A stretch of 64,000 nucleotides of DNA, taken from contig CAMDFF010000002.1 of the NCBI GenBank assembly GCA_945897315.1, forward strand, positions 23,992 to 87,991, in the 5' to 3' direction. Positions 1 through 30,379 of this stretch are shown here, piece by piece (position 1 is the stretch's first letter; each line of letters starts with the position of its first letter). The notes beneath the pieces are model-generated. The model had not been told where the DNA came from and did no database searches. It saw only the letters and a program-made list of their open reading frames with translations. This DNA is from a candidate division TM6 bacterium UASB124. GTDB taxonomy: Bacteria; Babelota; Babeliae; Babelales; RVW-14. A program made the position numbers and the translations under genes.

Positions 1-96
1 TTGCAGCGCTGAGCAAACAGTAATGTCGCGGGGTTGTATTTGCCAACCATGAAAGGCTGTGCCGTCATAAGATATGGTAATTTTATAATAATTCAT
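1..96 (-). CDS. truA: tRNA pseudouridine synthase A, first 32 codons only (gene runs off the left edge)
   Basis: Not in the ORF track because there is no stop in the window. The reverse complement of 1..96 reads MNYYKITISYDGTAFHGWQIQPRDITVCSALQ. The YDGT.F.GWQ.QP block is the conserved TruA N-terminal motif. Confidence 0.55.
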   Translation of the reverse strand, partial: MNYYKITISYDGTAFHGWQIQPRDITVCSALQ

Positions 97-326
97 AAAA
101 AAGAAAAATTCATGAAAAAACCCCCATCCAGACTATGACGTCACGGACAGGGGAAATGGAGGTTATCAAAAGTAAATGAGCACTATAAACTAAAAATTTA
201 TAAAACAATGATACTTGCTCGATGGGTAAAAAGCAACAGATTTTTGAATGTTTTTTTACGCAATTCATCGTCTAGCTTTTGTTATGCAAAGAATCATAAA
301 AGTGAAATTAAGCTGTAGTTGAATTT

Positions 327-1424
327 TCAAGCAGAATTTTTCAGCTCATTATAAAGTGCGTTTACCATATTTATAGCATTGGTCACATCATGTTTCCTGC
401 AAGCAACCTCCTGCCCTGCTTTGCCAAGCCTACTACGGTACGTGGGTGATTGCATGAGTGATGTAAGTAATGCCGCATAGTCCTCGGGGGACCGGTTAGT
501 GATAATCAATCCAGTAAGGTCGTTTTCAATAACATCGTGTGTGGCTGTTTGATTCGTGGTGATAATCGGGCAGCCACTAGCCATAGCCTCGAGCAAGGCC
601 AGAGAAAGTCCTTCGCTGTGTGATGTAATGGCAAAGCAATCAAAGAGCTGATAGAAGCGATGTGCGTCGCTCCTGAGCCCCGTTATGACAACGCGGTCAG
701 CGATGCCCATGTCTTGTGCGAGCTGTTCAAGATTGTGGCGACAGCTACCATCGCCGACTAGTAGTAGGTACGTAGAAGGGGGCAACAGTGCGCAAGCTTT
801 GATCAAGAGGTCGTAGCCCTTGATTGGCTCAAGACGGCCGACAGCACCGACTACAAAAGCGTTTTCTGGGATGTTAAGCGCAATGCGAGACAGCGGAATT
901 TCTTGTGGGAGTAAAAAGCGTTTAGTATCAATGGCATTAGGGATAGTGACCAACTTTATAGGCCGGTCTTTGATAATATGGTACTGGTACGCTTGAGCAA
1001 CGGAATTGCTAACGGCAATTGTGACGCTAGTAAAGCCTGCAGTGAGACGGTCTCCCCAGTTACGAATACGACCTTCAGCTGTACAGTTACCGTGTAGATC
1101 ACTGATCACGGGGACGTGTATCCAGTAACCAATGAGGCGCCCAATGATATTTGCAGACCAGAGTGATGTGTGGACTATATCAACATTGTGTATTTGCAGC
1201 CAGCGGTATAAGCGCCACCAGCCGTAGGGGTCGTAATGTGTGATTAGCCCTTGAATCTGGGTGCAGCGTATGCCTGCGGCCTCAAGCCGTGCGCGTATCG
1301 GGCCGTCATGAAAAAAGGCCACGAATACATCGTGGCCTTTTTCTTTAATCTTAGGGGCAAGTTGAGCAAGCGCAACTTCAGCCCCTCCAATTTTTAGACT
1401 AGCAATAACGTAGGCAATACGCAT
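327..1424 (-). CDS. glycosyltransferase, GT4/GT-B type
   Basis: 365 aa. N-terminus is [17 protein letters not shown]; the C-terminal half has SHSEGLSLALLEAMASGCPIITT (the E-x7-E-type GT1/GT4 motif). Its start overlaps the rpoD stop (TAATG). Confidence 0.8.
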   Translation of the reverse strand: MRIAYVIASLKIGGAEVALAQLAPKIKEKGHDVFVAFFHDGPIRARLEAAGIRCTQIQGLITHYDPYGWWRLYRWLQIHNVDIVHTSLWSANIIGRLIGYWIHVPVISDLHGNCTAEGRIRNWGDRLTAGFTSVTIAVSNSVAQAYQYHIIKDRPIKLVTIPNAIDTKRFLLPQEIPLSRIALNIPENAFVVGAVGRLEPIKGYDLLIKACALLPPSTYLLLVGDGSCRHNLEQLAQDMGIADRVVITGLRSDAHRFYQLFDCFAITSHSEGLSLALLEAMASGCPIITTNQTATHDVIENDLTGLIITNRSPEDYAALLTSLMQSPTYRSRLGKAGQEVACRKHDVTNAINMVNALYNELKNSA

Positions 1425-3877
1425 TATTCAATCGGATCGCTAGATGAATTATTATCTATGTCTCTTTCAATAAAAGAGGTGAGCTTCTTGCTGCGAGATG
1501 GATGACGTAGCTTGCGGAGCGCCTTCACTTCAATTTGACGAATACGTTCACGGGTAACCGAGAAGTCTTTGCCAACTTCTTCAAGTGTGTGCTCTGATGC
1601 AACATCGATACCAAAGCGCATCTTGAGGACCTTTTCTTCCCGTGGGGTCAGCGTTTTTAGTACTTCACGCACTTTTTCTTTCAGGTCTTCATTGATAACG
1701 GCATCCACTGGTGAATACTCGTTTTCATCTTCAATAAAGTCTTTCAGGTACGTATCTTCGCTGTCACCAACGGGTGTTTCTAGTGAAACAGGCTCTTTTG
1801 AAATCTTAATGATATTTTTAATTTTCTTTTCATCAAGATTTAGCTCTTTGGCAAGCTCAGTGTATGTTGGGTCGCGTCCCTGCTCTTGTACGTAGGTACG
1901 AGTAATCTTGTTGATTTTGCTCAGTGTTTCCACCATGTGCACCGGTACGCGAATGGTACGCGATTGGTCGGCAATTGCACGGGTGATTGCTTGGCGAATC
2001 CACCAGGTAGCATATGTAGAAAACTTAAAGCCACGCTCAAATTCAAACTTTTCAACAGCTTTGAGTAGCCCAATATTTCCTTCCTGAATCAGATCAAGAA
2101 AGTGTAGCCCGCGGTTGATATATTTTTTAGCAATGTTAACTACTAAGCGTAAGTTAGCTCGTGCGAGGTCGTCTTTGGCAGATTTATCTTTTTTCTGCGC
2201 TACAACAAAGCGTTTGTAGTGTGCAAAAATCTTGTCGCGCGCGATACCCGCTTCTGACTCAACTTTTTTTGCTAACTTTTGTCCACTGCGACAGACGCTT
2301 TCGAGTATTGCTATCTGCTCAAGATCGTTTTCATTTGGCTTCTTAAGGCTGCGATAGAATGTAAGCTTTGCTTCAGCATTCCGAACTTCATCATCTTTTT
2401 CTTGGATTTTATAATAAAGCTTTTCAATCTTCTTGCCAAACTTCTTGATCTGCTTGTTAGAAACCTTAATAGCACGGATAGCAAGCACAATTTGGCGCTT
2501 GTTTTGATCTACCTTGCTTAACATTTCTTTCTTTTTTTCTTCGGAATCAAGTTGATTGCGATACGAACGATAAATCTTATCTTCGTTGCTTGCAAGCTCT
2601 TTAATGTTTTGAATAGCCCCAACAAGCCTAACTTTTTCTTCCTCAAATTTTGGCGAATTATCTTCGTCAAAATCAGAGAATTGGACTAGATCTTTTAAGA
2701 ATAGCGTGTCTTTGCTAAGCCGCTCTTCAAAGCCCATTAAATCTTTTGCGACAAACGGAAATTCTGAAATAGCTTCAATTGATTCACGCTTGCCGGTAGC
2801 AATTTTATCAGCAATGACTTTTTCGGTGTCTTTATTCAAGAGGGGGATCTTACCAATTTCTTTGAGGTACAGCTTCACTGGATCGTTCAGCTGGCTCGGC
2901 TCCATGATGCTCTTGAGTTTATCAAGGTCTTTATCGTAATAGTCATCATCATGTGCTGCATCATTAGCTTCTGATGCGTCAAGTGAGCCATCAATATCAT
3001 TGGGCAACTTTTCAAAAGCAGCCGTTTTTGATGTCGAAGTTTCAACGAGACCATCAAAATCTTGCGTGCCGGTTTCGAGCTCATCTTGTGAAATAAGGTC
3101 AATGTTTTCGCGTTCAAGAATACGTACAAGCTCGTTAGAATCTTCGTCTGAAAGGCGATGTCGTTGATTGAAAGACATAAGCTCTTCGTAGGTCAAAACA
3201 CCTTCATTACGTCCTCGCTCCAGAAGAGAGCCAACGTGCTTATCGATGCTTTTTAGTGACTGCGTTAAGAGTTGTTCTTCATCAGGAATGTTGATGAGTG
3301 CGTTTAAGTCTTCAAGATCTTCTTCTCGCTCTTGCCTTGGAGCGATCAGTTGGATCACAGGATCTTTAGCCGCGATGCTTTTTTTTGTCGCTTTTTCGGC
3401 AGACTTAGAAGCAGTAGCTTTTGCTGTTTTTTTCACTGGTGATTCCACCATGAACGATTCATGAAGTGTAGCTTTTGTGGCCGCAACAACACTTGATTTG
3501 CCTACTTTAACAAGTGTTGGGGTTGGCTGCTTTTCTACAGGGAGTGATGGTGAGTATCCCACGAGTCTTGGCCCTGGAACCTTTGGAGTAGCAATTTTCT
3601 TTATTGTTTTTTGGGGAGCGCGCAACAGGGGTTGTTTTGCAGCAGCCTTTTTTATGATCTTAGCGATAACAACTTGTTTTTTAGCGACAGTACGACCGGG
3701 AGCGCTTACTAATTTTTTAGCGACAGGGCGACCAGTTTTTTGTTTGGCTATTATTTTTTTACGGACAATAGTTTTTTTAGGCGCGGTAGCTTTAGCTACT
3801 GCTTTTTTCGTGTGCTTTTGCTTGCTAATAGCAGCTTTTTTTATTTTTTTCGTTGCGACTTTTTTGCCAGATTTCAT
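1424..3877 (-). CDS. rpoD: primary RNA polymerase sigma factor (sigma-70/RpoD) with a long Lys/Ala-rich N-terminal extension
   Basis: 817 aa. Region 2 reads [56 protein letters not shown]. Region 4 reads [30 protein letters not shown]. It lies directly downstream of dnaG with an ATGA overlap. Confidence 0.95.
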
Positions 3878-5676
3878 CGTACAAGCCCCCTTTGCATCAT
3901 GCCTTGTTTGAGGTGAGAAAAACGTTCAAGCACATCATTCATCGTCTGTGTGTCATTTTCTAATTTTGCTTTGACCAGTTGCTGTTTTATATCCTTGACT
4001 ATCCTTTGCCAGTGAACCTTGCAAAATCTATCTAAAAGCCGATCAAATAACTGATGGCATGTTTGCGTGTTGTGTTGCATAGCAACACGAACAACCCATT
4101 CCTTATGAAAAGCTTCAAAGGAGTCGAGGAGTTCACTAACAGATGATGATCCATCATGATGGCTGTGCCATTGCTCAACGAGCATTAACAAGCTCTGCAT
4201 ACGAGAACTAAAATAGGGCCGCACATCACCAGGAACGTGTAACAGCTTACCAGCTGCAATGCCGCCAAGTATACCAGAAAAAATTTTTTCTTCTAGCAAC
4301 TGATTATCAGGCTCTGTTGATTCTTGAGGTTCTGTAACAACATGACCTACTTCCACTGGGGTTTCAAACTGTATTTTTTGTGCCTGCTTGCGCATGGTAG
4401 TATTCAGGAGTGTTTTGAAAGAGTCAAATGGCATTTGCATCACAGCCGCTGCATGGTGGAGCAAGACATCCTGTTTAAAGCTGTTTTTAATTTTGGCAAT
4501 CGTTCCAACAATTTTTTCGGCAGAGCTCATTTTTTGGGCAAGAGGCTTAGCTAAAAAATTTGCACCAAGCGAATTGATGAAGTGGTGCATAATTTCAACA
4601 GCACTGGCTTTATAGCCTAGTAAGTCGCCCCCATCTATCAGAAATGAAGCAGGGTCGTGCTTTATTGGCAGCGTAATAATATACATTTCTAAATTTACCT
4701 CCCAACAGAGTTCCGCTAGTCGCAGCATTGCTTTTTGGCCAGCATGGTCGCCATCGTAAAGCACATATAGAGTGTGAGCATGTCTGCTGAGCTGTTTAAG
4801 ATGATCGATAGTGCAGGCAGTGCCAAGTGTTGCAATAGTGTTAATAAAACCATATTGCACCATCATGATGCAGTCAACATAGCCCTCAACAAGAAACACT
4901 GATTCTTCAGTTTGAATGGCTTTTTTAGCCATATCAAACCCAAATAAAATCTTGCCTTTTTCAAAGCCGTCTGCCTCTTTGCTATTGTAGTATTTTGCGC
5001 GGTCATCGCCGGTACGAAAAACTCTACCCCCAAAACCGCAGTGTCTGGCTTGCATATCTTTGATGGGAAAGATTATGCGCTCTTCAAAGGGTGAGTAGGG
5101 CATGCCTTTACCGTCGGCTAGTACGCCAGCATCGTGCAGATCTCTGAGTAGAAACCCTTCACCTTGTAAATCTTTTAAAAGCTTTTTGATGTTGTGTTGT
5201 CCGCCAGGAAAGTAGCCAATCTGAAAAGATTTAATCGTTTCCAAACTTACCGAGCGTTGCACAAGATAATCAACTGCATATTGATTACTAAAGAGTTGTT
5301 TGTGCGCCCAGGCAGAGAAGGCTTTGCAGGTTTGAAAATAACGGTCTTTGGCATCTTTTTCTTCTGTTGTTGAACTATGTATTTGCTTTGTAAGCTCAGC
5401 AGGAACGCTTAATTGGTAGCGCTCGATGAGTAGCTGCGCTGCTTCAAGCTGGTTGAGGTGTTCAAGTTTGGCAATAAATGAGATGACATCCCCTGATGCA
5501 TGGCATCCAAAACAGTAATAAATTTGCTTCTCTGGGCTAACGGTGAAAGAAGCATCTTTTTCTGCATGGAAAATACAAGACCCTTTCCAGTAGTGCCCTG
5601 CAGGTTTGAGTGATACGACTTCACCGATGACGTCTAAAATTGAAACCTGTTGTTTTATAAAATTAAAAAGGGACAT
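3874..5676 (-). CDS. dnaG: DNA primase
   Basis: 600 aa. CHC2 zinc finger ([13 protein letters not shown]...[15 protein letters not shown]). TOPRIM motifs [11 protein letters not shown] and DGDHAGQKA. Confidence 0.9.
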
Positions 5677-5694: not shown

Positions 5695-6552
5695 TTATGG
5701 CTTTTTTGAGGAGAGGAGCCACAGTAGCCCAGCGATGGTGCATAAAAGTCCGACAACAGAATACATTTGTACTTGCGAAATAACTAATGATCCTATTGTT
5801 CCAATGATCGGGTCGCGATCACCGCGCCAAAAATCAAGAATAAACCGAGCAATGTTTTCAAGCATGAGAAATGAACACAGCATAATCCCAGGATTCTTTA
5901 GTAGGCGTTTCTGTAAGAAAAATAGTATGGAAAAAGTTATTGCTGATGCGGCACTTGCATAAAGCTGTGTTGGATGCAGAGGTATGAAGAGCGGGGCATG
6001 AGCATCAGGGTTGATAAACGTGACAGCCCACAAGAGGGCAGCAGCAGGAGCTCCATAGCAACAGCCAGCGGCAAAACAACCAAGGCGAGAAATAGCGTGC
6101 ATGAGCGGTGCGAATAGTGCGACAAGATCAAATAGTGGCAGCACCGGGATATGATGTCGCTTGAGGTACCAAAATCCGCCAATCAGAACCCCTATAATTG
6201 CCCCAATGACTGTCAGGCCACCTATCCATGGCAGAAATAATTCGTGCCATCGACCCGTAAATTCTGCAGGGTAGGATAGGGCGTAGAGCAACCGTCCTCC
6301 GGCGACGCCGCAGAGCAGTCCAAAAAAGACACCGTTTATGTAAAGATCTTTGCTGATGATTTTTTTGCGTTGTGGGTGATTGATTGAAAAATATAAAAAA
6401 ATGAGGAGGCCAACGGCAATCATAAAGCCATAGCTTTGAATCCAAATGGGGCCGTACAGATGAGCGATATGCGGAAACATGTGTCCTCCAATGATAAGTG
6501 TTTGAGCTGCAGGGGTACAGTTTACCAGAAGCTGCAGGAGAGACAAGGTCAC
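5695..6552 (-). CDS. lgt: prolipoprotein diacylglyceryl transferase
   Basis: 285 aa polytopic membrane protein with GGRLLYAL and the Lgt signature HPTQLY. GTG start at 6552. Confidence 0.8.
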   Translation of the reverse strand: MTLSLLQLLVNCTPAAQTLIIGGHMFPHIAHLYGPIWIQSYGFMIAVGLLIFLYFSINHPQRKKIISKDLYINGVFFGLLCGVAGGRLLYALSYPAEFTGRWHELFLPWIGGLTVIGAIIGVLIGGFWYLKRHHIPVLPLFDLVALFAPLMHAISRLGCFAAGCCYGAPAAALLWAVTFINPDAHAPLFIPLHPTQLYASAASAITFSILFFLQKRLLKNPGIMLCSFLMLENIARFILDFWRGDRDPIIGTIGSLVISQVQMYSVVGLLCTIAGLLWLLSSKKP

Positions 6553-6555
6553 ATG
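6521..6555. repeat. direct repeat copy 1 (covers the lgt start codon and first codons)
   Basis: tttaccagaagctgcaggagagacaaggtcacatg. It matches 7631..7665 at 32 of 35 positions. Confidence 0.85.
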
Positions 6556-6675
6556 GAAATATCAGATTTTATACATTACTTAGAGAGGTAGAATATTATT
6601 TGTTGCTATGCTCTTACCTGTAACGACATACTCATCAATAGAAATATATTTATTTTTATCACAAAGGGGGGATTC

Positions 6676-7593
6676 ATGAAAAAGATACAAAGACAGCTAT
6701 TACTTGTGGGCGCTTGCGGACTGCTTGTGGGGACTGTTCAGGCATCTTCAGATACCAGAGAAAAAGTTAGGTTGGACCACGACGCAAAAGAGGCAGCAGC
6801 AGAAAATGAGACTCGAGTGCGTGCGCGGGAAATGGCTATTGCCATGCAAAATGCTGCCTGGCAAAAAGCAGTCAGGGATGAGGCAAAAAATAGTCAAGAG
6901 ATTAGCGATAGCATAGCTAAAGCTCGGCAAGGTGGATCAAGCCTTCTGCTAGAAGCTGCGGTTGACGCTAAAGCTCAAGAATCTGCTGGCAGGGATGAGC
7001 TAGCAAAGAGAGCTGCAGAACGCGCAGCACGCGCAGCAGCTCGAGAAGGGCTTGCAAAAGAACAGCGATCAATGGAATGTAGCGAAGCACAATCTGCACC
7101 AGAAAAGGCATCTGAATTGGTTAGATTGCGGCCAGCAGCGACTCGTCCTGTTTGTGCTTCTGCTCCGGCTAAAGAGAGTGAACCTCCATTTGTTAAAATA
7201 GCTCGAGAAAAAAAAGAGCGGGCCGCGGCGGCGCAACTACAGCAAGATCTATCGCGCTTAGCTGATCGTCTAGCTACAATGCCCCAAGAAAAAGCCGAAG
7301 AAGTTGTGGAAAATGCACTGGTAGCAGCTAGTTGTAGCGGATCTGGAGTTGTTGAGGCTGTCGAAGCGCCTGGTAACGATGGCATGGGAGCCCCAGCTGA
7401 AGCACCAGTAAGTTCTTTGCCTGTGAGTGCAGATCCTATGCCAGTAGCTGCGTCTACTGATGCATCTGTGTCAGCTACCGCGCCTACGGCGGCGCCTACT
7501 GCACCAGCTGCTGCCGACGCAGGCTGGTTTGCTTGGGGTGTGCAAGGTGTTGCAAGCGTGCTGCCTTCTTCATTGAACCCATGGTCAAAATAA
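6676..7593 (+). CDS. hypothetical secreted Ala/Glu/Lys-rich protein
   Basis: 305 aa. Signal-peptide-like N-terminus MKKIQRQLLLVGACGLLVGTVQASS. Low-complexity helical A/E/R/K core and an A/P/T/S-rich tail. Visibly more GC-rich than the flanks. Confidence 0.6.
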   Translation: MKKIQRQLLLVGACGLLVGTVQASSDTREKVRLDHDAKEAAAENETRVRAREMAIAMQNAAWQKAVRDEAKNSQEISDSIAKARQGGSSLLLEAAVDAKAQESAGRDELAKRAAERAARAAAREGLAKEQRSMECSEAQSAPEKASELVRLRPAATRPVCASAPAKESEPPFVKIAREKKERAAAAQLQQDLSRLADRLATMPQEKAEEVVENALVAASCSGSGVVEAVEAPGNDGMGAPAEAPVSSLPVSADPMPVAASTDASVSATAPTAAPTAPAAADAGWFAWGVQGVASVLPSSLNPWSK

Positions 7594-7630: not shown

Positions 7631-7665
7631 TTTACCAGAAGCTCCAGGAGAGACAAGGCCGCATG
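7631..7665. repeat. direct repeat copy 2 (orphan copy of the lgt 5' end)
   Basis: tttaccagaagctccaggagagacaaggccgcatg. On the minus strand it reads only ATG CGG CCT TGT CTC TCC TGG AGC TTC TGG TAA, a dead-end mini-ORF. Confidence 0.85.
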
Positions 7666-23845: not shown

Positions 23846-24844
23846 ATGAAGCGGTATGGTTTTACTATTCTAGAAATGCTTTTAGCTGTAGGCCTTTCGT
23901 GTGTACTGCTGTATGGTCTGATGTATGCGTTTTTGTCAGTGACACGCTATGTTACGGTCATGCGTGAAATGACGACTATGCAGCGTGCTGTGGGGCTGAC
24001 ATTTTATCAGCTGCGTACTGATGTGAGCGCGGCGTTTGTACCAGAAGTGCTATACAAAGATGAAACAGCGGAAGAAAAGCAAAAGCAAAAAGCAGCGGAC
24101 GCGCAGCTAAGTAAAGAGAAAAAAGAGGCGCAAGACAAAGCTGCCTTTAAATCGTATTTTTTGCTTTCGTTTGACGATCATCTTGATGCAAGCAAAATTG
24201 AAGGAACGCGTCGATATCCCTTTAAAATACTGAGTTTTGTGACGACTAATCCATTACACGTTTTTGGGCAAAAACAGCCTCGCTTAGTGCGCGTTGTGTA
24301 TGAAATAATTCGTAATAAAAAGAGATCAACACGAGATCGAGATGTGTTCTCATTGAGACGCAAAGAAGTAACCGATATTGCCAATGCTGAGGCTAAAGCA
24401 GGTTTTAAAGACAAAGAGCGTGAAAAAGACACTGAAGATGCTATTGTGCAGAGCTACGTGGTTGCTGATAATTTGCGTGGGGCTTACCTTGAATGTGAGC
24501 TGCTGAAAAAAGATGTGCCTCGTAAAAAAGATGAGACTGAAAAAGAGATCCCTGAAGGGGAGATGGTGCAAAGTACGACCTGGGGAGATAAAGATCCACT
24601 GCAGGGGTTTGTGCCTCGTAGCGTGAGCTGCTGGTTGTGGTTTTGGCAGGGTGATTCGCAAAAATCGATTTTGTTTGGTGAGGTGATTGAAATTAAGAGC
24701 TACCCGTCAATCCATGTAACTATTGAAGAAAAAAAATCTGAAAAGCCAACAGAGCAACCAGTTCAGCAATTAGCACCGCAGTCTCCACCTGCAGCAGAGG
24801 CTACACAACTAGGTATTGCGCTTGTACCAGGGGTGCCATCATGA
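23846..24844 (+). CDS. minor pseudopilin (GspJ-like by position), enlarged
   Basis: MKRYG/FTILEMLLAVGL. 332 aa with charged K/E-rich insertions and a P/Q-rich tail. Confidence 0.6.
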   Translation: MKRYGFTILEMLLAVGLSCVLLYGLMYAFLSVTRYVTVMREMTTMQRAVGLTFYQLRTDVSAAFVPEVLYKDETAEEKQKQKAADAQLSKEKKEAQDKAAFKSYFLLSFDDHLDASKIEGTRRYPFKILSFVTTNPLHVFGQKQPRLVRVVYEIIRNKKRSTRDRDVFSLRRKEVTDIANAEAKAGFKDKEREKDTEDAIVQSYVVADNLRGAYLECELLKKDVPRKKDETEKEIPEGEMVQSTTWGDKDPLQGFVPRSVSCWLWFWQGDSQKSILFGEVIEIKSYPSIHVTIEEKKSEKPTEQPVQQLAPQSPPAAEATQLGIALVPGVPS

Positions 24845-25977: not shown

Positions 25978-27507
25978 GTGAAGCTTGAGACTAAAGTTGG
26001 TTTTTTTATCCTCGCTGCTGTCGGGGTGTTTTTGTATTTAAGTATTAATATTCGTGCGTTGCGGCTGGATAAAAATCGCTACAATGAATATAAAGCCTAT
26101 TTTGATGATACCTCTGGGTTGAATAAAAAAGCGCCGGTTAAAATTGCGGGTGTTGATGTGGGCTGGGTTGAGCACATTAGCTTGCTGAGTGACGGGAAAG
26201 CTGAAGTAGTCATGCTGATTGATAAGCACATTCGACTAGCAAAAAATGCCCATGCCATGATTCATCAAGATGGTTTGATTGGCGTTAAGACGTTGGAAAT
26301 TGACCCAGGAGATCCATCAACAGGCGTTATGCTTGCCGGTAGTACATTAGCATTGCCAGGGAAAAGTCCTGCAACTGTTGGGGAGCTGCTTGATCAGTTC
26401 AGAGACATTGCAAGCACGATTCAGGATGTTACTTCATCCTTTAAAAATGTTTTTGCATCGCGCCGTGGTGAAGAGCAGATGCGTGCAACGCTTGATGCTG
26501 TTTCTAAGGCGTCTTCGCGTATGGCTGATTTCTCTGAGGTACTTGAGCGGACCATCAAAGGTAATGAGCATAATATCAATACAATTGTTGCTGATTTACA
26601 TACGACAATAGCCGATTTTAAAGATCAACATCTTGCAGACAAAGCGTCTGTAACCCTTACTAAAGCATCAGATGCTTGTGAAAATGTTTCAGATGCGGCG
26701 ATTCAGGGCCGTGAAACGTTACGAGAAGCCGGCGAGGTCGTTGGCAAAATTAATAGTGGCAAAGGTCTGATTGGTAAGCTGATTAATGAAGATGAAACGT
26801 ACACCGATATTAAAAAGACGGTACGTGGGGTTAAAGATTACATTAGTAAGACGCAGTCGCTGATGTTGAGCATCGATATGCACAGTGAGTCGATGTTGCG
26901 GCATACCAATTCGAAGGGATACTTTGAGTTGCGGTTACGTCCAAGTGCTGATTATTTCTATCAAATCCAAATGGTTGCTGATGAGCAAGGCAGTGTGAGC
27001 CGTGAGCGTGTTCGTAGATCATACTTCGACAGCAGCGGCGTGCAGCTTGAAACAAACAATGTGCCTAAGCTTGAGCCATGGGCAAAATTTGAATACTCTC
27101 AAGAGAAAGAACGTGTTGTCCAGCGCAAAAATGATATTATGTTTGGCTTGCAGTTTGGTAAGCGCTTCAATCGGCTTGCCTTCCGCGTGGGTTTATTTGA
27201 AAATTCCTTTGGTGGGGCTGTTGATTGGTATGTTCCTCTCGAGACAGATTCGTTTCACTGGATTACATCGCTTGAGGCTTTCGATTTTGGTGGCTACAAG
27301 CGGTTTGATACAACTGATCATCGTCCTCACGTTAAATGGTTAAACAAAGCGTTCTTTATGAAAAATCTCTATACCTGTTTTGGGCTTGATGATATTTACG
27401 GTAAAAAAGGTGCTAACCCATTCTGGGGTGGGGGATTGCGGTTTAATGATGATGATCTTAAATATTTCTTGTCATCATTTGGCGCTGCGGCAAAGCCAAG
27501 CAAATAG
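25978..27507 (+). CDS. MCE/MlaD-domain protein with a long C-terminal extension
   Basis: GTG start after GAGGTG. N-terminal TM (VGFFILAAVGVFLYL), then an MCE domain (YKAYFDDTSGLNKKAPVKIAGVDVGWVEHISL...IHQDGLIGVKTLEIDPG). About 350 further residues follow. Confidence 0.75.
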   Translation: MKLETKVGFFILAAVGVFLYLSINIRALRLDKNRYNEYKAYFDDTSGLNKKAPVKIAGVDVGWVEHISLLSDGKAEVVMLIDKHIRLAKNAHAMIHQDGLIGVKTLEIDPGDPSTGVMLAGSTLALPGKSPATVGELLDQFRDIASTIQDVTSSFKNVFASRRGEEQMRATLDAVSKASSRMADFSEVLERTIKGNEHNINTIVADLHTTIADFKDQHLADKASVTLTKASDACENVSDAAIQGRETLREAGEVVGKINSGKGLIGKLINEDETYTDIKKTVRGVKDYISKTQSLMLSIDMHSESMLRHTNSKGYFELRLRPSADYFYQIQMVADEQGSVSRERVRRSYFDSSGVQLETNNVPKLEPWAKFEYSQEKERVVQRKNDIMFGLQFGKRFNRLAFRVGLFENSFGGAVDWYVPLETDSFHWITSLEAFDFGGYKRFDTTDHRPHVKWLNKAFFMKNLYTCFGLDDIYGKKGANPFWGGGLRFNDDDLKYFLSSFGAAAKPSK

Positions 27508-27642: not shown

Positions 27643-27840
27643 TTAGGCGCGGCCGATACCTGAAGGGTTGGGAAGCGGGCAGACATCGTCCCAGTCTTCA
27701 TCAGAGAAGCTTTCGTACTCATCTTCATCAACAAAAACAAACGCGATATTGTAGCTTGGCTCGTAAATAGCCTGGTACTCGCTGCTGTAGGTGCAAGATA
27801 GGGGAATGATGGAGTTGTGCAGGTCAGATGGTGTGTTCAT
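27643..27840 (-). CDS. small acidic hypothetical protein
   Basis: 65-aa ORF with a D/E-rich stretch (VDEDEYESFSDEDWDD) and its own terminator. No motif recognised. Confidence 0.35.
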   Translation of the reverse strand: MNTPSDLHNSIIPLSCTYSSEYQAIYEPSYNIAFVFVDEDEYESFSDEDWDDVCPLPNPSGIGRA

Positions 27841-27951
27841 GAAATGGGCCTAAATCGAGCATGGTAATGGTTTCGTGTAAGAGAAATATACCGCCCAATT
27901 TTGTTTTTTCAATCAAAAAATATAAAAAACTATAAATATTTCTAGTGAGAT

Positions 27952-28041
27952 TTATTTGATCTGCTCGATGCGGTTTAAAAATACACTTAGGAGGCGATAG
28001 TCTTTGCCAGAGAGCAAAGGCAAAGGGGATGAAATATTTTC
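27952..28041 (-). pseudogene. orphan 3' fragment paralogous to the C-terminus of the 29615..30379 gene
   Basis: The minus strand reads ENISSPLPLLSGKDYRLLSVFLNRIEQIK*. The real gene ends EEISHGFALLSGNDYRRLKVFLHRIEQIK*, so 20 of 29 residues are identical. The fragment has no start codon, and an in-frame stop lies just upstream. Confidence 0.65.
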
Positions 28042-28043
28042 AC

Positions 28044-28081
28044 AAAAAATGAGCAGGGGTTAGTAAAAACTAACCCCTGCT
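28044..28081 (-). terminator. rho-independent terminator of the 28171..29484 gene
   Basis: 12-bp perfect stem AGCAGGGGTTAG / CTAACCCCTGCT, followed on the minus strand by TTTTTT. Confidence 0.75.
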
Positions 28082-28170
28082 GCCCAATCCTAGGCGATCA
28101 ACAGTTGTGAATGGCGATTTTTAATATTTACTTTTTTGTGCTCGGCGAAGCGAGGTCTTCTCGCGTAGGC

Positions 28171-29484
28171 TTATTTTTTACTAGGAGAGAGCCTTCCTAT
28201 AAGCGTTTTAAGATCTCTGGTCAGATTCATTATTCTGTCGTCAGCTACGATAAGGGAAAGACCATCCACTAAAGCGTTAAGAAGATGAAGGTTTTCTTTT
28301 TGTTTTTCTATAACGGTGTGCAATGATTGCTTACATCCTTGCAATGGAGTGCATAGCGCGCTGCTGCAAGGATATTCTAACAATTGTGTTATCTGATCAG
28401 CTGTAGCTTTCTTTAGGGCAAGCGTCAATATATCTAGCTGGCTCCCCTGAGCAGCAATATGTATCACAATAAAAAATAGACTATCATTGTGTTTTGTTAT
28501 CTCAGATATTACCTCAGCAGTTAATAATGCAATAGCTTTCTTCTTCATTATTGCTTGAAAAATGCGAATATAGTCTGACGGTTCGATAGCCTCTAAATCT
28601 CTAAGTGCACTTAATACTTGTTCTGCGGTGGTGCCACGTTGTATTAGCGTCAGAATATTAGTAACTTCTTTTATGCCTGGCATTGTGCTCGTACTACTAC
28701 TGCCTGCACCACTAGCTGCAGCACTGGCGGCAGCAGGCACGGAGCCTCCTCCAGAGCCACCGCAAAGAGGAATAGGACTTGGTGTTATTGCGGCAGTAGT
28801 TGCTGATCCGGCTCCAGAGCCGCCAGACAGAGGTGGTACTAATTTTAGTGGGGCAGATGGCTCGCGAAAAGTTAATCTTGTTTGTAGTTTGCGGGTGGTC
28901 TCTGTAAGTGGTGCGCTTGGGGCATCGGCTGCTACGGTTTTTGGAGGGGTAGCATTTGGGACCTTAAATGGTGATGTGTTTGCAGCGTGAGAGAGAGTGG
29001 CTACTGGTCTTTCAGGGCTTGCTGTAGCACCACCAGCTGCTACAGGTGCTGCTACAGGTATCGGCCTAAGCTGCACAGTAGGAGGAAGGGGCTGGTGTAA
29101 TAAGTTTCTTGGTGCTGGGCTTACTTGAGGGGTAGGTTGGCTAGCTGATATTGATGATGCTGCTGTGTGAGATGCGCTGCTAGAGCTTGATGCTCTAGCC
29201 GGATCTTGCTGTGGTAGTGGTGCTAGTGGTTGAGCTGGTTTGCGGCCTAAAGGTCGAGGTGTTTTTAGAGGTGATGGTGAGGTTGCGATGGATGATGGTG
29301 AAAGCACAGAAGACGATGGTGATCTTGTGATGGATGATGGTGAAGTCACAGAAGGCAATGGAGCCCCTGCTGCTGATCGTATTGCTGGAAAAGCACCAGC
29401 TCCGCCGTTTGCAGAACTAGAAAAAAGTGACGATGACCCAATGGTATATGCAATACCAAGAGTGATAATAATGCGATTAACCAT
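28171..29484 (-). CDS. hypothetical protein: signal peptide, ~270-aa Pro/Ser/Ala-rich low-complexity region, ~160-aa helical C-terminal domain
   Basis: 437 aa. MVNRIIITLGIAYTIGSSSLFSS, then SPSS/AAPV/GGSG-type low complexity. The C-terminal domain has one ankyrin-like stretch (FFIVIHIAAQGSQLDILTLALKK). GC-rich relative to the flanks. Confidence 0.6.
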   Translation of the reverse strand: MVNRIIITLGIAYTIGSSSLFSSSANGGAGAFPAIRSAAGAPLPSVTSPSSITRSPSSSVLSPSSIATSPSPLKTPRPLGRKPAQPLAPLPQQDPARASSSSSASHTAASSISASQPTPQVSPAPRNLLHQPLPPTVQLRPIPVAAPVAAGGATASPERPVATLSHAANTSPFKVPNATPPKTVAADAPSAPLTETTRKLQTRLTFREPSAPLKLVPPLSGGSGAGSATTAAITPSPIPLCGGSGGGSVPAAASAAASGAGSSSTSTMPGIKEVTNILTLIQRGTTAEQVLSALRDLEAIEPSDYIRIFQAIMKKKAIALLTAEVISEITKHNDSLFFIVIHIAAQGSQLDILTLALKKATADQITQLLEYPCSSALCTPLQGCKQSLHTVIEKQKENLHLLNALVDGLSLIVADDRIMNLTRDLKTLIGRLSPSKK

Positions 29485-29614
29485 AATTTGCCTTCTTGGT
29501 AAATACTAATATTTCAACTATGAAATAATTTACCATTCGCATAACGATAGGTCAAGCCGGGTTAAAAATTGTGCGTTTTTGCATAAAAAAGATAAAATTT
29601 GTATGATTTCGATA

Positions 29615-30379
29615 TTATTTGATCTGCTCAATACGATGTAAAAAAACCTTTAGCCGTCGATAATCGTTGCCTGAAAGCAAAGCAAATCCGTGGCTAATTT
29701 CTTCTAAGAGGTTAGCCGAGAGTAGGTTTTTAGCTTTAACCGTACGAATAATAGCTAGCAAAAGCTCATCTAAATTCTGAATAGCGTTAGAAAAACCATA
29801 CAGAACCTCTAAAAATTGGGCGTCGGCGAAGAATTGTGTAGTCAGTGTGTCAGGAGCTTCGCTGACAAAAGCATGGATCTTAGGAGGTGTAGGCGGTATA
29901 GCAAAGATGATCGGAGAATCCGCTCTTTCTTGGCCCGTTGGGCCGGCGGCCTGCGACAAGCTCAGGGTGAGCGGTTTTGCTAAGCCATGCGTATCATCTA
30001 CATTAATTAAAGAATCGATTATTTCTCTCCGCTCACCCTGAGCTTGTCGAGCGGGCGAGCTCGTAGAGTGAGAAAGAGTGGGTTTAATGTACCCACAGGC
30101 CTGCACAGAAAATGTTGTCTTCAGAAAAGCAAAAATTTGTGGCTGTTCCCGTTCTAGCTCTTCTTCAGTTTTTTGATACGCAAATGGTGTGCGTGATGGA
30201 TCCATTGATCCTGTTTGGATATTGGTGACGATTCCTAAAATGTGGAGCTCTTTGTCTTGAATACTGACAAGCGAACCAAAGGTAGGGAACTGTTTCCAGT
30301 TCCAGCATTGTGCTGTGTAATGGTCAAGGGACGATTCTATGACCTCAGCAAAAAAGGGATGTTTGTTTTGGTTCTTCAT
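29615..30379 (-). CDS. hypothetical protein carrying a repeat-element-encoded internal segment
   Basis: 254-aa ORF that overlaps the rnhB stop by 35 nt. Roughly residues 99-154 (KPTLSHSTSSPARQAQGE...KPLTLSLSQAAGPTGQERAD) are encoded by repeat I3. Confidence 0.55.
   Translation of the reverse strand: MKNQNKHPFFAEVIESSLDHYTAQCWNWKQFPTFGSLVSIQDKELHILGIVTNIQTGSMDPSRTPFAYQKTEEELEREQPQIFAFLKTTFSVQACGYIKPTLSHSTSSPARQAQGERREIIDSLINVDDTHGLAKPLTLSLSQAAGPTGQERADSPIIFAIPPTPPKIHAFVSEAPDTLTTQFFADAQFLEVLYGFSNAIQNLDELLLAIIRTVKAKNLLSANLLEEISHGFALLSGNDYRRLKVFLHRIEQIK
29918..30084. repeat. full palindromic repeat element (I3) inside an ORF
   Basis: Perfect 21-bp inverted arms cgacaagctcagggtgagcgg (29954..29974) and ccgctcaccctgagcttgtcg (30029..30049). 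The outer inverted ends are tccgctctttct / agaaagagtggg. Confidence 0.85.

Follow-up and report, generated by a model that had tools for sequence, protein, structure and literature searches.

Insertion of a single orphan gene at the duplicated 3' end of a HAS-barrel gene in a Candidatus Dependentiae genome

Introduction

Among the ways in which bacterial genomes gain single genes, insertion with long target duplication is known but poorly understood; it was reportedly described in 2000 by Nobusato et al. in Gene 259:99. Two further processes bear comparison with it. Homology-facilitated illegitimate recombination (HFIR), said to have been described by de Vries and Wackernagel in 2002, usually yields deletions rather than duplications in its classical form, and minimal mobile elements were reportedly described in Neisseria by Saunders and Snyder in 2002. 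Here we analyze a locus in a window of 64,000 nt (the whole stretch of DNA that was examined, positions 23992 to 87991 of contig C2) from the genome of an uncultured protist parasite in Candidatus Dependentiae (TM6), order Babeliales. The genome, which we call G000, has 1.26 Mb in 49 contigs and is 95% complete. In this window the 3' end of a gene for a HAS-barrel domain protein, the host gene, occurs twice, and the two copies bracket one gene for an orphan protein of 437 amino acids, the cargo. Our verdict is that the locus constitutes a new example of insertion with long target duplication, as judged from sequence comparison.

In the published cases the repeats frequently extend across start or stop sites, most cases are in competent species, and the mechanism was left open (Furuta, Abe and Kobayashi 2010, PMC2853133). 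The locus studied here resembles them in that its short insert (<20 kb) lacks any integrase or transposase and its direct repeats exceed 30 bp (68 nt at 79% identity, or 108 alignment columns at 77%) and occur nowhere else in the genome. The repeat also matches the single copy at the empty site (in the related genomes G001, G002, and G015 and the metagenome contig L070), and it spans the stop codon of a gene which survives. It differs from them in that the cargo is not a restriction-modification system, which was a criterion of the screen and not of the mechanism. The cargoes elsewhere in the genome are ATPase-nucleases and toxin-antitoxin pairs, and a Fic gene also serves as cargo. Further differences are that the host is a reduced intracellular member of the Dependentiae, that the repeats here are old (77%), and that the differences between them carry a signature of coding constraint, a feature unexamined in the published work. 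No earlier description of this insertion mode in Dependentiae was found in the literature searched.

As with the minimal mobile elements of Neisseria, the locus is a slot between conserved genes with varying cargo (a Ser/Ala/Pro-rich gene, a Fic gene, three ankyrin genes, a 285-amino-acid open reading frame [ORF], or nothing); unlike here, those elements are swapped through a double crossover within the genes on either side, and the exchange duplicates no gene end. In Escherichia coli K-12, prophage e14 lies between icd and the icdC remnant, according to one account (PMC13626634, citing Hill et al. 1989). There, as for phage 21 in icd, a replacement 3' end keeps the gene whole, the original end lies as a remnant on the far side, and the differences are largely silent, all of which holds for our locus. 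By contrast, e14 spans 15 kb, encodes an integrase, and has a defined attachment core, whereas the insert here consists of one gene, brings no recombinase, and shares no core with other loci. Finally, circles that contained a portion of lacZ integrated by single crossover in E. coli and gave duplications of 109 to 950 bp (PMC3240628), an experimental precedent for the route that we favor below. In such Campbell-type integration, as in the present arrangement, one homologous segment gives a direct duplication of variable length around the insert, and host recombination functions suffice. Compared with the laboratory plasmid events, the homology here is shorter (35 to 170 nt), and the natural form of the donor is inferred.

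Results

The end of the HAS-barrel gene is duplicated

A repeat search showed that positions 27952-28019 and 29615-29682 of the window form an ungapped direct repeat of 68 nt with 79% identity, both copies opening with the letters TTATTTGATCTGCTC. BLAST lengthens the match to 27922-28024 versus 29583-29686 (108 columns, 77%), with an E-value of 8e-9 against the whole genome and 3e-12 in local comparison. A whole-genome search found these two copies only, and there is no tRNA in the window, indicating that the repeat is neither dispersed nor a tRNA attachment site. On the minus strand, positions 27952-28041 translate to ENISSPLPLLSGKDYRLLSVFLNRIEQIK followed by a stop codon, in a frame that has no start codon, and 20 of the 29 residues are identical to the end of the HAS-barrel protein. 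The two gene-end copies are spaced 1663 bp apart. A chance repeat was considered and is ruled out by the E-values together with the genome-wide surplus of direct over inverted bracketing repeats described below (21 versus 1-2).

An earlier note, made from the letters alone, had proposed a duplication of the gene end between 27952..28041 and 29615..29704, and nucleotide alignment, BLAST, and translation all demonstrate it. The extent given there, a 90-nt copy, stands in part. We estimate that the duplicated segment covers ~73-90 coding nt, perhaps with a further ~30 nt beyond the stop codon; of the 90 nt first assigned to the duplication, the innermost ~17 nt show weak similarity.

Empty sites in relatives identify the insertion and the original gene end

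The HAS-barrel gene was matched in 40 of the 41 Babeliales genomes searched, always downstream of rnhB. Across these 41 genomes, second partial matches to its end are restricted to the remnants in G000 and in G003 (CAIKAH01), a sister species. The congener G002 has an empty site: after its intact gene (203 amino acids) come 132 nt, a small acidic ORF, and a convergent gene for an MlaD-domain protein, with neither cargo nor a second copy of the gene end. G001 and G015, the latter from another genus, have the same arrangement, also empty. On L070 the convergent MlaD gene lies ~270 nt past the gene end, again with no cargo. A tree of six flanking proteins (1788 columns) separates G000 and G003 from G002 and G001 with 98% support (informative sites 37, 22, and 13). 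From these empty sites and this tree it follows that the empty state is ancestral; the comparison thus demonstrates an insertion, and the unoccupied sites in G001, G002, G015, and L070 agree with the earlier proposal that the unit is specific to one lineage.

An alignment of the gene ends and their flanks (A2) identifies which copy was there before. In G002 the intact gene is directly followed by a spacer whose orthologues lie next to the remnants of G000 and G003. What comes after the working copies, by contrast, is DNA specific to the cargo, and the DNA 3' of the G000 working copy is unlike the flank in either G002 or G003. Because the flank of the distal copy is orthologous to the empty-site flank and that of the working copy is not, the alignment supports the distal copy as the original gene end, left on its original flank, as had been suggested from the window.

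The insert is a 1663-bp unit with one ORF, no Pfam domain, and no integrase, transposase, or other mobile element. Recombinases encoded elsewhere in the genome comprise two PF00589 proteins of 316-324 amino acids, of Xer size, on other contigs. The idea of an integrative element in the usual sense is therefore not upheld, since the insert brings no recombinase and the genome has two Xer-like tyrosine recombinases only; the label applies in a loose sense at most. The genome also contains genes for RecA, a ComEC-domain protein, and a DprA-like protein (next to maf), which would serve host recombination and DNA uptake.

No homologue of the cargo was found in a library of 5.8e9 clusters or in 34 genomes of the family, and a search of 1.84e9 representatives gave none except three weak repeat-protein matches. 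The cargo is not vertically inherited, because the family and these two large protein libraries hold no homologue. Vertical conservation of the cargo at this position, which would have spoken against an insertion, was not observed; the gene is absent from all relatives.

The same slot was used by a Fic gene in a sister species

In G003 the same slot holds a gene for a 378-amino-acid Fic protein (Fic_N+Fic; PF13784+PF02661), and directly after it lies a 61-nt remnant with 95% identity to the G003 gene's own end. The insert is 1.29 kb and consists of the Fic gene alone, whose stop codon abuts the remnant; an independent metagenome contig, L069, has a Fic gene in the same arrangement. Over the common 61 nt, the copies group by genome and not by position: the G003 pair differs at 3-4 sites and the G000 pair at 14, compared with 12 differences between the two working ends. 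Both junctions and cargoes differ between G000 and G003, and two separate insertion events are the simpler reading of these sequences. Elsewhere the slot contains three ankyrin genes (G008) or a 285-amino-acid ORF (G007). Among ~80 HAS-barrel loci, a remnant occurs only in G000 and in the lineage of G003.

The Fic family is patchy, present in 53 of 151 genomes with a best non-self identity of 52%. No clean flanking duplications were found around Fic homologues in seven other Babeliales genomes. In G003 the MlaD gene is replaced by two other genes (locus L024 = G003:C2:53000-62500, 84-4954). One encodes an effector-like candidate deubiquitinase of 1020 amino acids, in which DnaJ and ubiquitin C-terminal hydrolase domains are combined, and the other a PDDEXK_9 ATPase.

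Genes bracketed by locus-specific repeats recur across the genome

The scan for recurrence was a local self-comparison of every 9-kb stretch of the genome. One or two whole genes are bracketed by locus-specific repeats of 25-169 nt at 21 places in direct orientation versus 1-2 in inverted orientation. The repeats of different loci are mutually unrelated and have no common attachment core; inspection by eye revealed no junction motif or microhomology common to different loci. Bracketed cargoes include AAA-ATPase_like+PDDEXK_9 genes, AAA_14+DUF4143 and AAA_35-like ATPases, a YafQ/antitoxin pair, an AbiEii pair, a PDDEXK_2 gene, and small Cys-rich pairs. Low-complexity cargoes of secreted type number only two, the 437-amino-acid protein and the product of a 305-amino-acid gene near lgt, and the majority of the ~20 other cargoes are selfish ATPase-nucleases or toxin-antitoxin pairs.

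Two suggestions of the earlier note therefore part company here. A recurrent insertion mechanism is borne out by the genome-wide search, which gave ~20 loci, and by the second cargo in the same slot of G003. A tie between that mechanism and low-complexity secreted cargo is contradicted, as most cargoes are AAA-ATPase/PD-(D/E)XK proteins, DUF4143 ATPases, and toxin-antitoxin pairs.

AAA-ATPase_like+PDDEXK_9 genes number 14 in the 1.26-Mb genome (contigs C1, C2, C4, C22, C26, and C48), and six of them lie between locus-specific direct repeats of 35-198 nt. An ATPase cargo at the 3' end of the Maf gene has a repeat of 53 nt with 94% identity, and the site was verified as empty in congeners by alignment (A3). 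The insert at C26:1888-3705 is almost the ORF alone, beginning 20 nt past the Maf stop codon and ending with its own stop codon abutting the remnant. At the 3' end of an OPT transporter gene, a YafQ + ParD-like pair (C15:10521-11326) is bracketed by a repeat of 78 nt with 97% identity (A4), and this site is empty in three congeners. AbiEii and its partner (C1:160978-162446) lie between repeats of 34 nt that are 100% identical. On contig C6, positions 57797-57908 and 59951-60062 form a 112-nt repeat with 100% identity; the second copy reaches the contig end and may be an assembly artifact.

The islet at lgt had been described as having the same architecture as the HAS-barrel locus, which is correct in part. 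It is an insertion with a verified empty site: in G002 and G003 the site is empty, with the upstream gene's terminator directly before lgt. Its 35-nt repeat, however, is a conserved leader upstream of the likely start and not a gene end. In this region (window 5695-6555 and 7631-7665), the long lgt ORF probably starts at an internal Met (MFPHIAHL), as in G002 and G003, in which case the repeat would not be coding.

Differences between copies fall mostly at third codon positions

In the pair from the window, 12 of 16 differences fall at third codon positions, and four young pairs have 9 of 10 there (9 synonymous). The combined 21/26 has a binomial tail of 9e-7 against an expectation of one third and of 1.4e-4 against 0.44, our estimate for a free remnant paired with a constrained working copy. 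Control pairs with doubtful frames from other loci are flat over codon positions; they come from ~100 loci of other genomes, where most matches were tandem-paralogue ends or doubtful ORFs, and they were used only as flat controls. Because the differences lie mostly at third positions, they are not what is expected of a remnant that was born identical and decayed freely; they are what two alleles would show if they had diverged while both belonged to functional genes. The surplus suggests that the new end came from a related genome, in line with the diverged replacement end that the earlier note had envisaged.

A second clue comes from the boundaries. In four gene-end pairs (G000 C26, C6, and C15; G003 L024 5351-5412 / 6645-6706), the duplication ends on its cargo side within the host stop codon or a single base past it. 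In three of these pairs the boundary falls after the TA of the stop codon, which ends in G in the working copy and in A in the remnant. Such a boundary at the stop would be explained if homology between diverged working alleles ended where coding ends.

Anatomy of the locus and its neighborhood

The features of the locus are listed in Table 1. The position of the MlaD gene is the same in G002, G015, G007, G008, and L070. The cargo had been credited with its own terminator with a 12-bp stem; the hairpin and T-run are present at 28081-28052, but the stem is longer by one base pair.

Table 1. Features of the HAS-barrel locus, in window coordinates
Feature	Position	Strand	Basis
HAS-barrel domain gene, 254 amino acids; host gene, intact	29615..30379	-	Pfam PF09378, E 1.6e-8
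Working copy of the duplicated segment (last ~73-90 coding nt, stop, ~30 nt beyond); adjoins the cargo promoter region	29583..29704	-	Repeat and alignment A2
Cargo upstream region: promoter-like TTGACC-17-TAAATT (29555-29527) and AAGAAGG ribosome-binding-like motif	29485..29582	-	Promoter by consensus match only
Cargo, orphan 437-amino-acid protein	28171..29484	-	ORF, no Pfam match
Intrinsic-terminator-like hairpin of the cargo: 13-bp stem, 4-nt loop, then CATTTTTTGT	28052..28081	-	Repeat and hairpin search
Remnant, original HAS-barrel 3' end, start-less, on the original downstream flank	27922..28041	-	Translation, alignment A2
Original downstream neighborhood: conserved spacer and acidic 65-amino-acid ORF (27643..27840)	27643..27921	-	Kept beside the HAS-barrel gene in G001, G002, G003, and G015
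Convergent MlaD-domain gene, far-side marker of the variable slot	25978..27507	+	Pfam PF02470

The 65-amino-acid ORF is very acidic, with a C terminus ending in SGIGRA. Within the HAS-barrel gene, the reading frame remains open across an insert of ~50 codons at window positions 29918-30084, which contains two perfect inverted arms of 21 nt (29954-29974 and 30029-30049). At the corresponding point in the middle of the gene, G003 has an insert whose sequence differs; G002, G001, and other genera have none there, and their proteins are ~200 amino acids long.

The cargo is probably an exported protein with a disordered Ser/Ala/Pro-rich linker and a helical-repeat-like domain. Residues 1-30 look, by eye only, like a Sec-type signal peptide, reading MVNR, then IIITLGIAYTIG, then SSSLFSSSA. 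Residues 31-267 (~235 amino acids) contain internal repeats and are 18% Ser, 17% Ala, and 17% Pro, together 52%. The remaining 170 residues (268-437) are modeled as all-helical with ~10 helices in a mediocre AlphaFold2 prediction (pLDDT 66). Comparison of this model with the PDB by Foldseek returned nothing below an E-value of 0.07, only weak matches to TPR-like or helical-repeat proteins, and a Pfam search of the cargo found no domain. By analogy with effector-like genes of protist parasites, the protein may be host directed, which is a guess.

The cargo gene had also been called GC rich, and its GC content is indeed 50-54%. The surplus is limited to codon positions 1 and 2, however, and GC at third positions (0.27-0.31) is below that of the genome (0.377). 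The composition therefore reflects amino acid content and not a GC-rich source, and we rejected GC content as a sign of foreign origin, the silent sites being AT-richer than the genome.

Discussion

On balance, and on the strength of the comparisons above, we consider it probable, if only modestly so, that an imported gene end and its cargo were joined to the HAS-barrel gene by homology-anchored recombination. A 1663-bp piece entered the last ~75-90 bases of the gene in the G000 lineage; on this account it carried a copy of the terminal ~75-120 bases of the gene and, behind it, a promoter, one orphan gene, and a terminator. The incoming end would complete the HAS-barrel gene, and the resident end, shifted 1.66 kb downstream, would decay as a start-less remnant; the host gene would still work because a spare copy of its tail came with the cargo. 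The insert brought no recombinase with it. Its donor may have been a related Dependentiae genome in which the cargo already lay behind the orthologous gene. Entry could have been by RecA-dependent single crossover of a circle carrying the gene end and the cargo (Campbell type), or by a homologous join at one end and an illegitimate join at the other. The comparisons show the insertion, the duplication, the identity of the original copy, and the recurrence; we infer the donor, the circular form, and the enzymes.

Several points weigh against this account. The codon-position test comprises only 26 differences in 5 pairs and an assumed null. No donor with the cargo behind a HAS-barrel gene was found among the ~80 loci. 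In a search for a donor-derived tract farther upstream in the gene, the 3' part has 14 informative sites that join G000 with G002 versus 9 that join G000 with G003, and silent sites are saturated; the 5' part has 5 and 9, respectively, and the contrast between the two parts is not significant. Similarity probably extends ~30 nt beyond the stop codon, through AT-rich sequence where it is uncertain. The event is old and its details are blurred, because the copies are only 77% alike. One ancestral duplication followed by replacement of the cargo and gene conversion, although not the simpler reading, would also account for the two occupied slots.

A true target duplication, in which both copies derive from recipient sequence through a break-and-fill-in or replication-based process and the remnant then decays, strikes us as rather unlikely. 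The footprint does fit the published class in that the repeats are long, of variable length, and specific to each locus, that mobility genes are lacking, and that relatives have an empty site. Many cargoes in the genome carry PD-(D/E)XK nuclease domains that could make breaks; one derived base is common to both G000 copies, and several are common to both G003 copies. Free decay, however, predicts differences at all codon positions, whereas 21 of 26 are at the third. No nuclease is encoded by the cargo gene described here, the Fic gene, or the toxin-antitoxin pairs, and an exact boundary at the stop codon in four pairs is not predicted by a random staggered cut.

We give less credence again to the possibility that the locus is the stump of a classical integrative element of the e14-in-icd type, a larger integrase island later deleted down to one gene. 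Its anatomy is that of e14, icd, and icdC, the differences are mostly silent, as with icd, two sister species both used this one site, and genomes in this group are reduced (1.26 Mb). Yet one ORF, its promoter region, and a terminator fill the 1663 bp, so that no integrase remnant fits, and the 1.29-kb insert of G003 is the Fic gene alone, its stop abutting the remnant. Nor would such elements be expected to give ~20 loci with repeats of differing sequence and length and no common core, in an assembly that is 95% complete and has only two Xer-like recombinases.

Quite improbable, in our estimate, is a single insertion in the ancestor of G000 and G003, with the cargo later swapped via the flanking repeats, which would have acted as a landing pad, and gene conversion in G003. 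It retains a place because G000 and G003 are sisters; their remnants lie on the same flank, and both have an extra ~50-codon insert in the middle of the gene that G002 and G001 do not. Against it, the remnants differ in length (~90 nt versus 61 nt), both junctions differ, the copies group by genome, and over the same 61 nt the G003 pair differs at 3-4 sites and the G000 pair at 14. That the distal copy is the remnant of a once-complete tandem HAS-barrel paralogue, with the cargo native to its position, is very improbable and disfavored: it explains the existence of a second partial copy only, whereas the 41 genomes give no second partial matches beyond G000 and G003, no further homology, of the kind that the paralogue idea raised in the earlier note calls for, lies upstream of the remnant in either genome, the site is empty in G001, G002, G015, and L070, the remnant is confined to G000 and the G003 lineage among ~80 loci, and the cargo is absent from all relatives.

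It is possible, though we would not call it probable, that Dependentiae shuttle accessory genes as recombinase-free gene-end cassettes, each made up of a cargo and the last 35-170 bases of a conserved gene. RecA would loop out the cargo between its two repeats, and the cassette would pass to a related genome in the same protist host and re-enter by single crossover in the orthologous gene end. Were this true, one repeat would be the donor's allele and not a copy of the target, and the silent-site signature would explain the general origin of insertion with long target duplication, an open matter for 25 years. The third-position surplus offers a cheap test for the published cases, one that bears on whether the cargo brings one of the repeats along with it.

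Dependentiae have small genomes and few classical mobile elements, yet their effector-like gene sets vary widely. At the HAS-barrel locus, three states of one site are seen within one genus: empty, occupied by a Ser/Ala/Pro-rich gene, and occupied by Fic. Together with the ~20 loci like it, this site shows one route by which single genes enter these genomes without killing the target gene.

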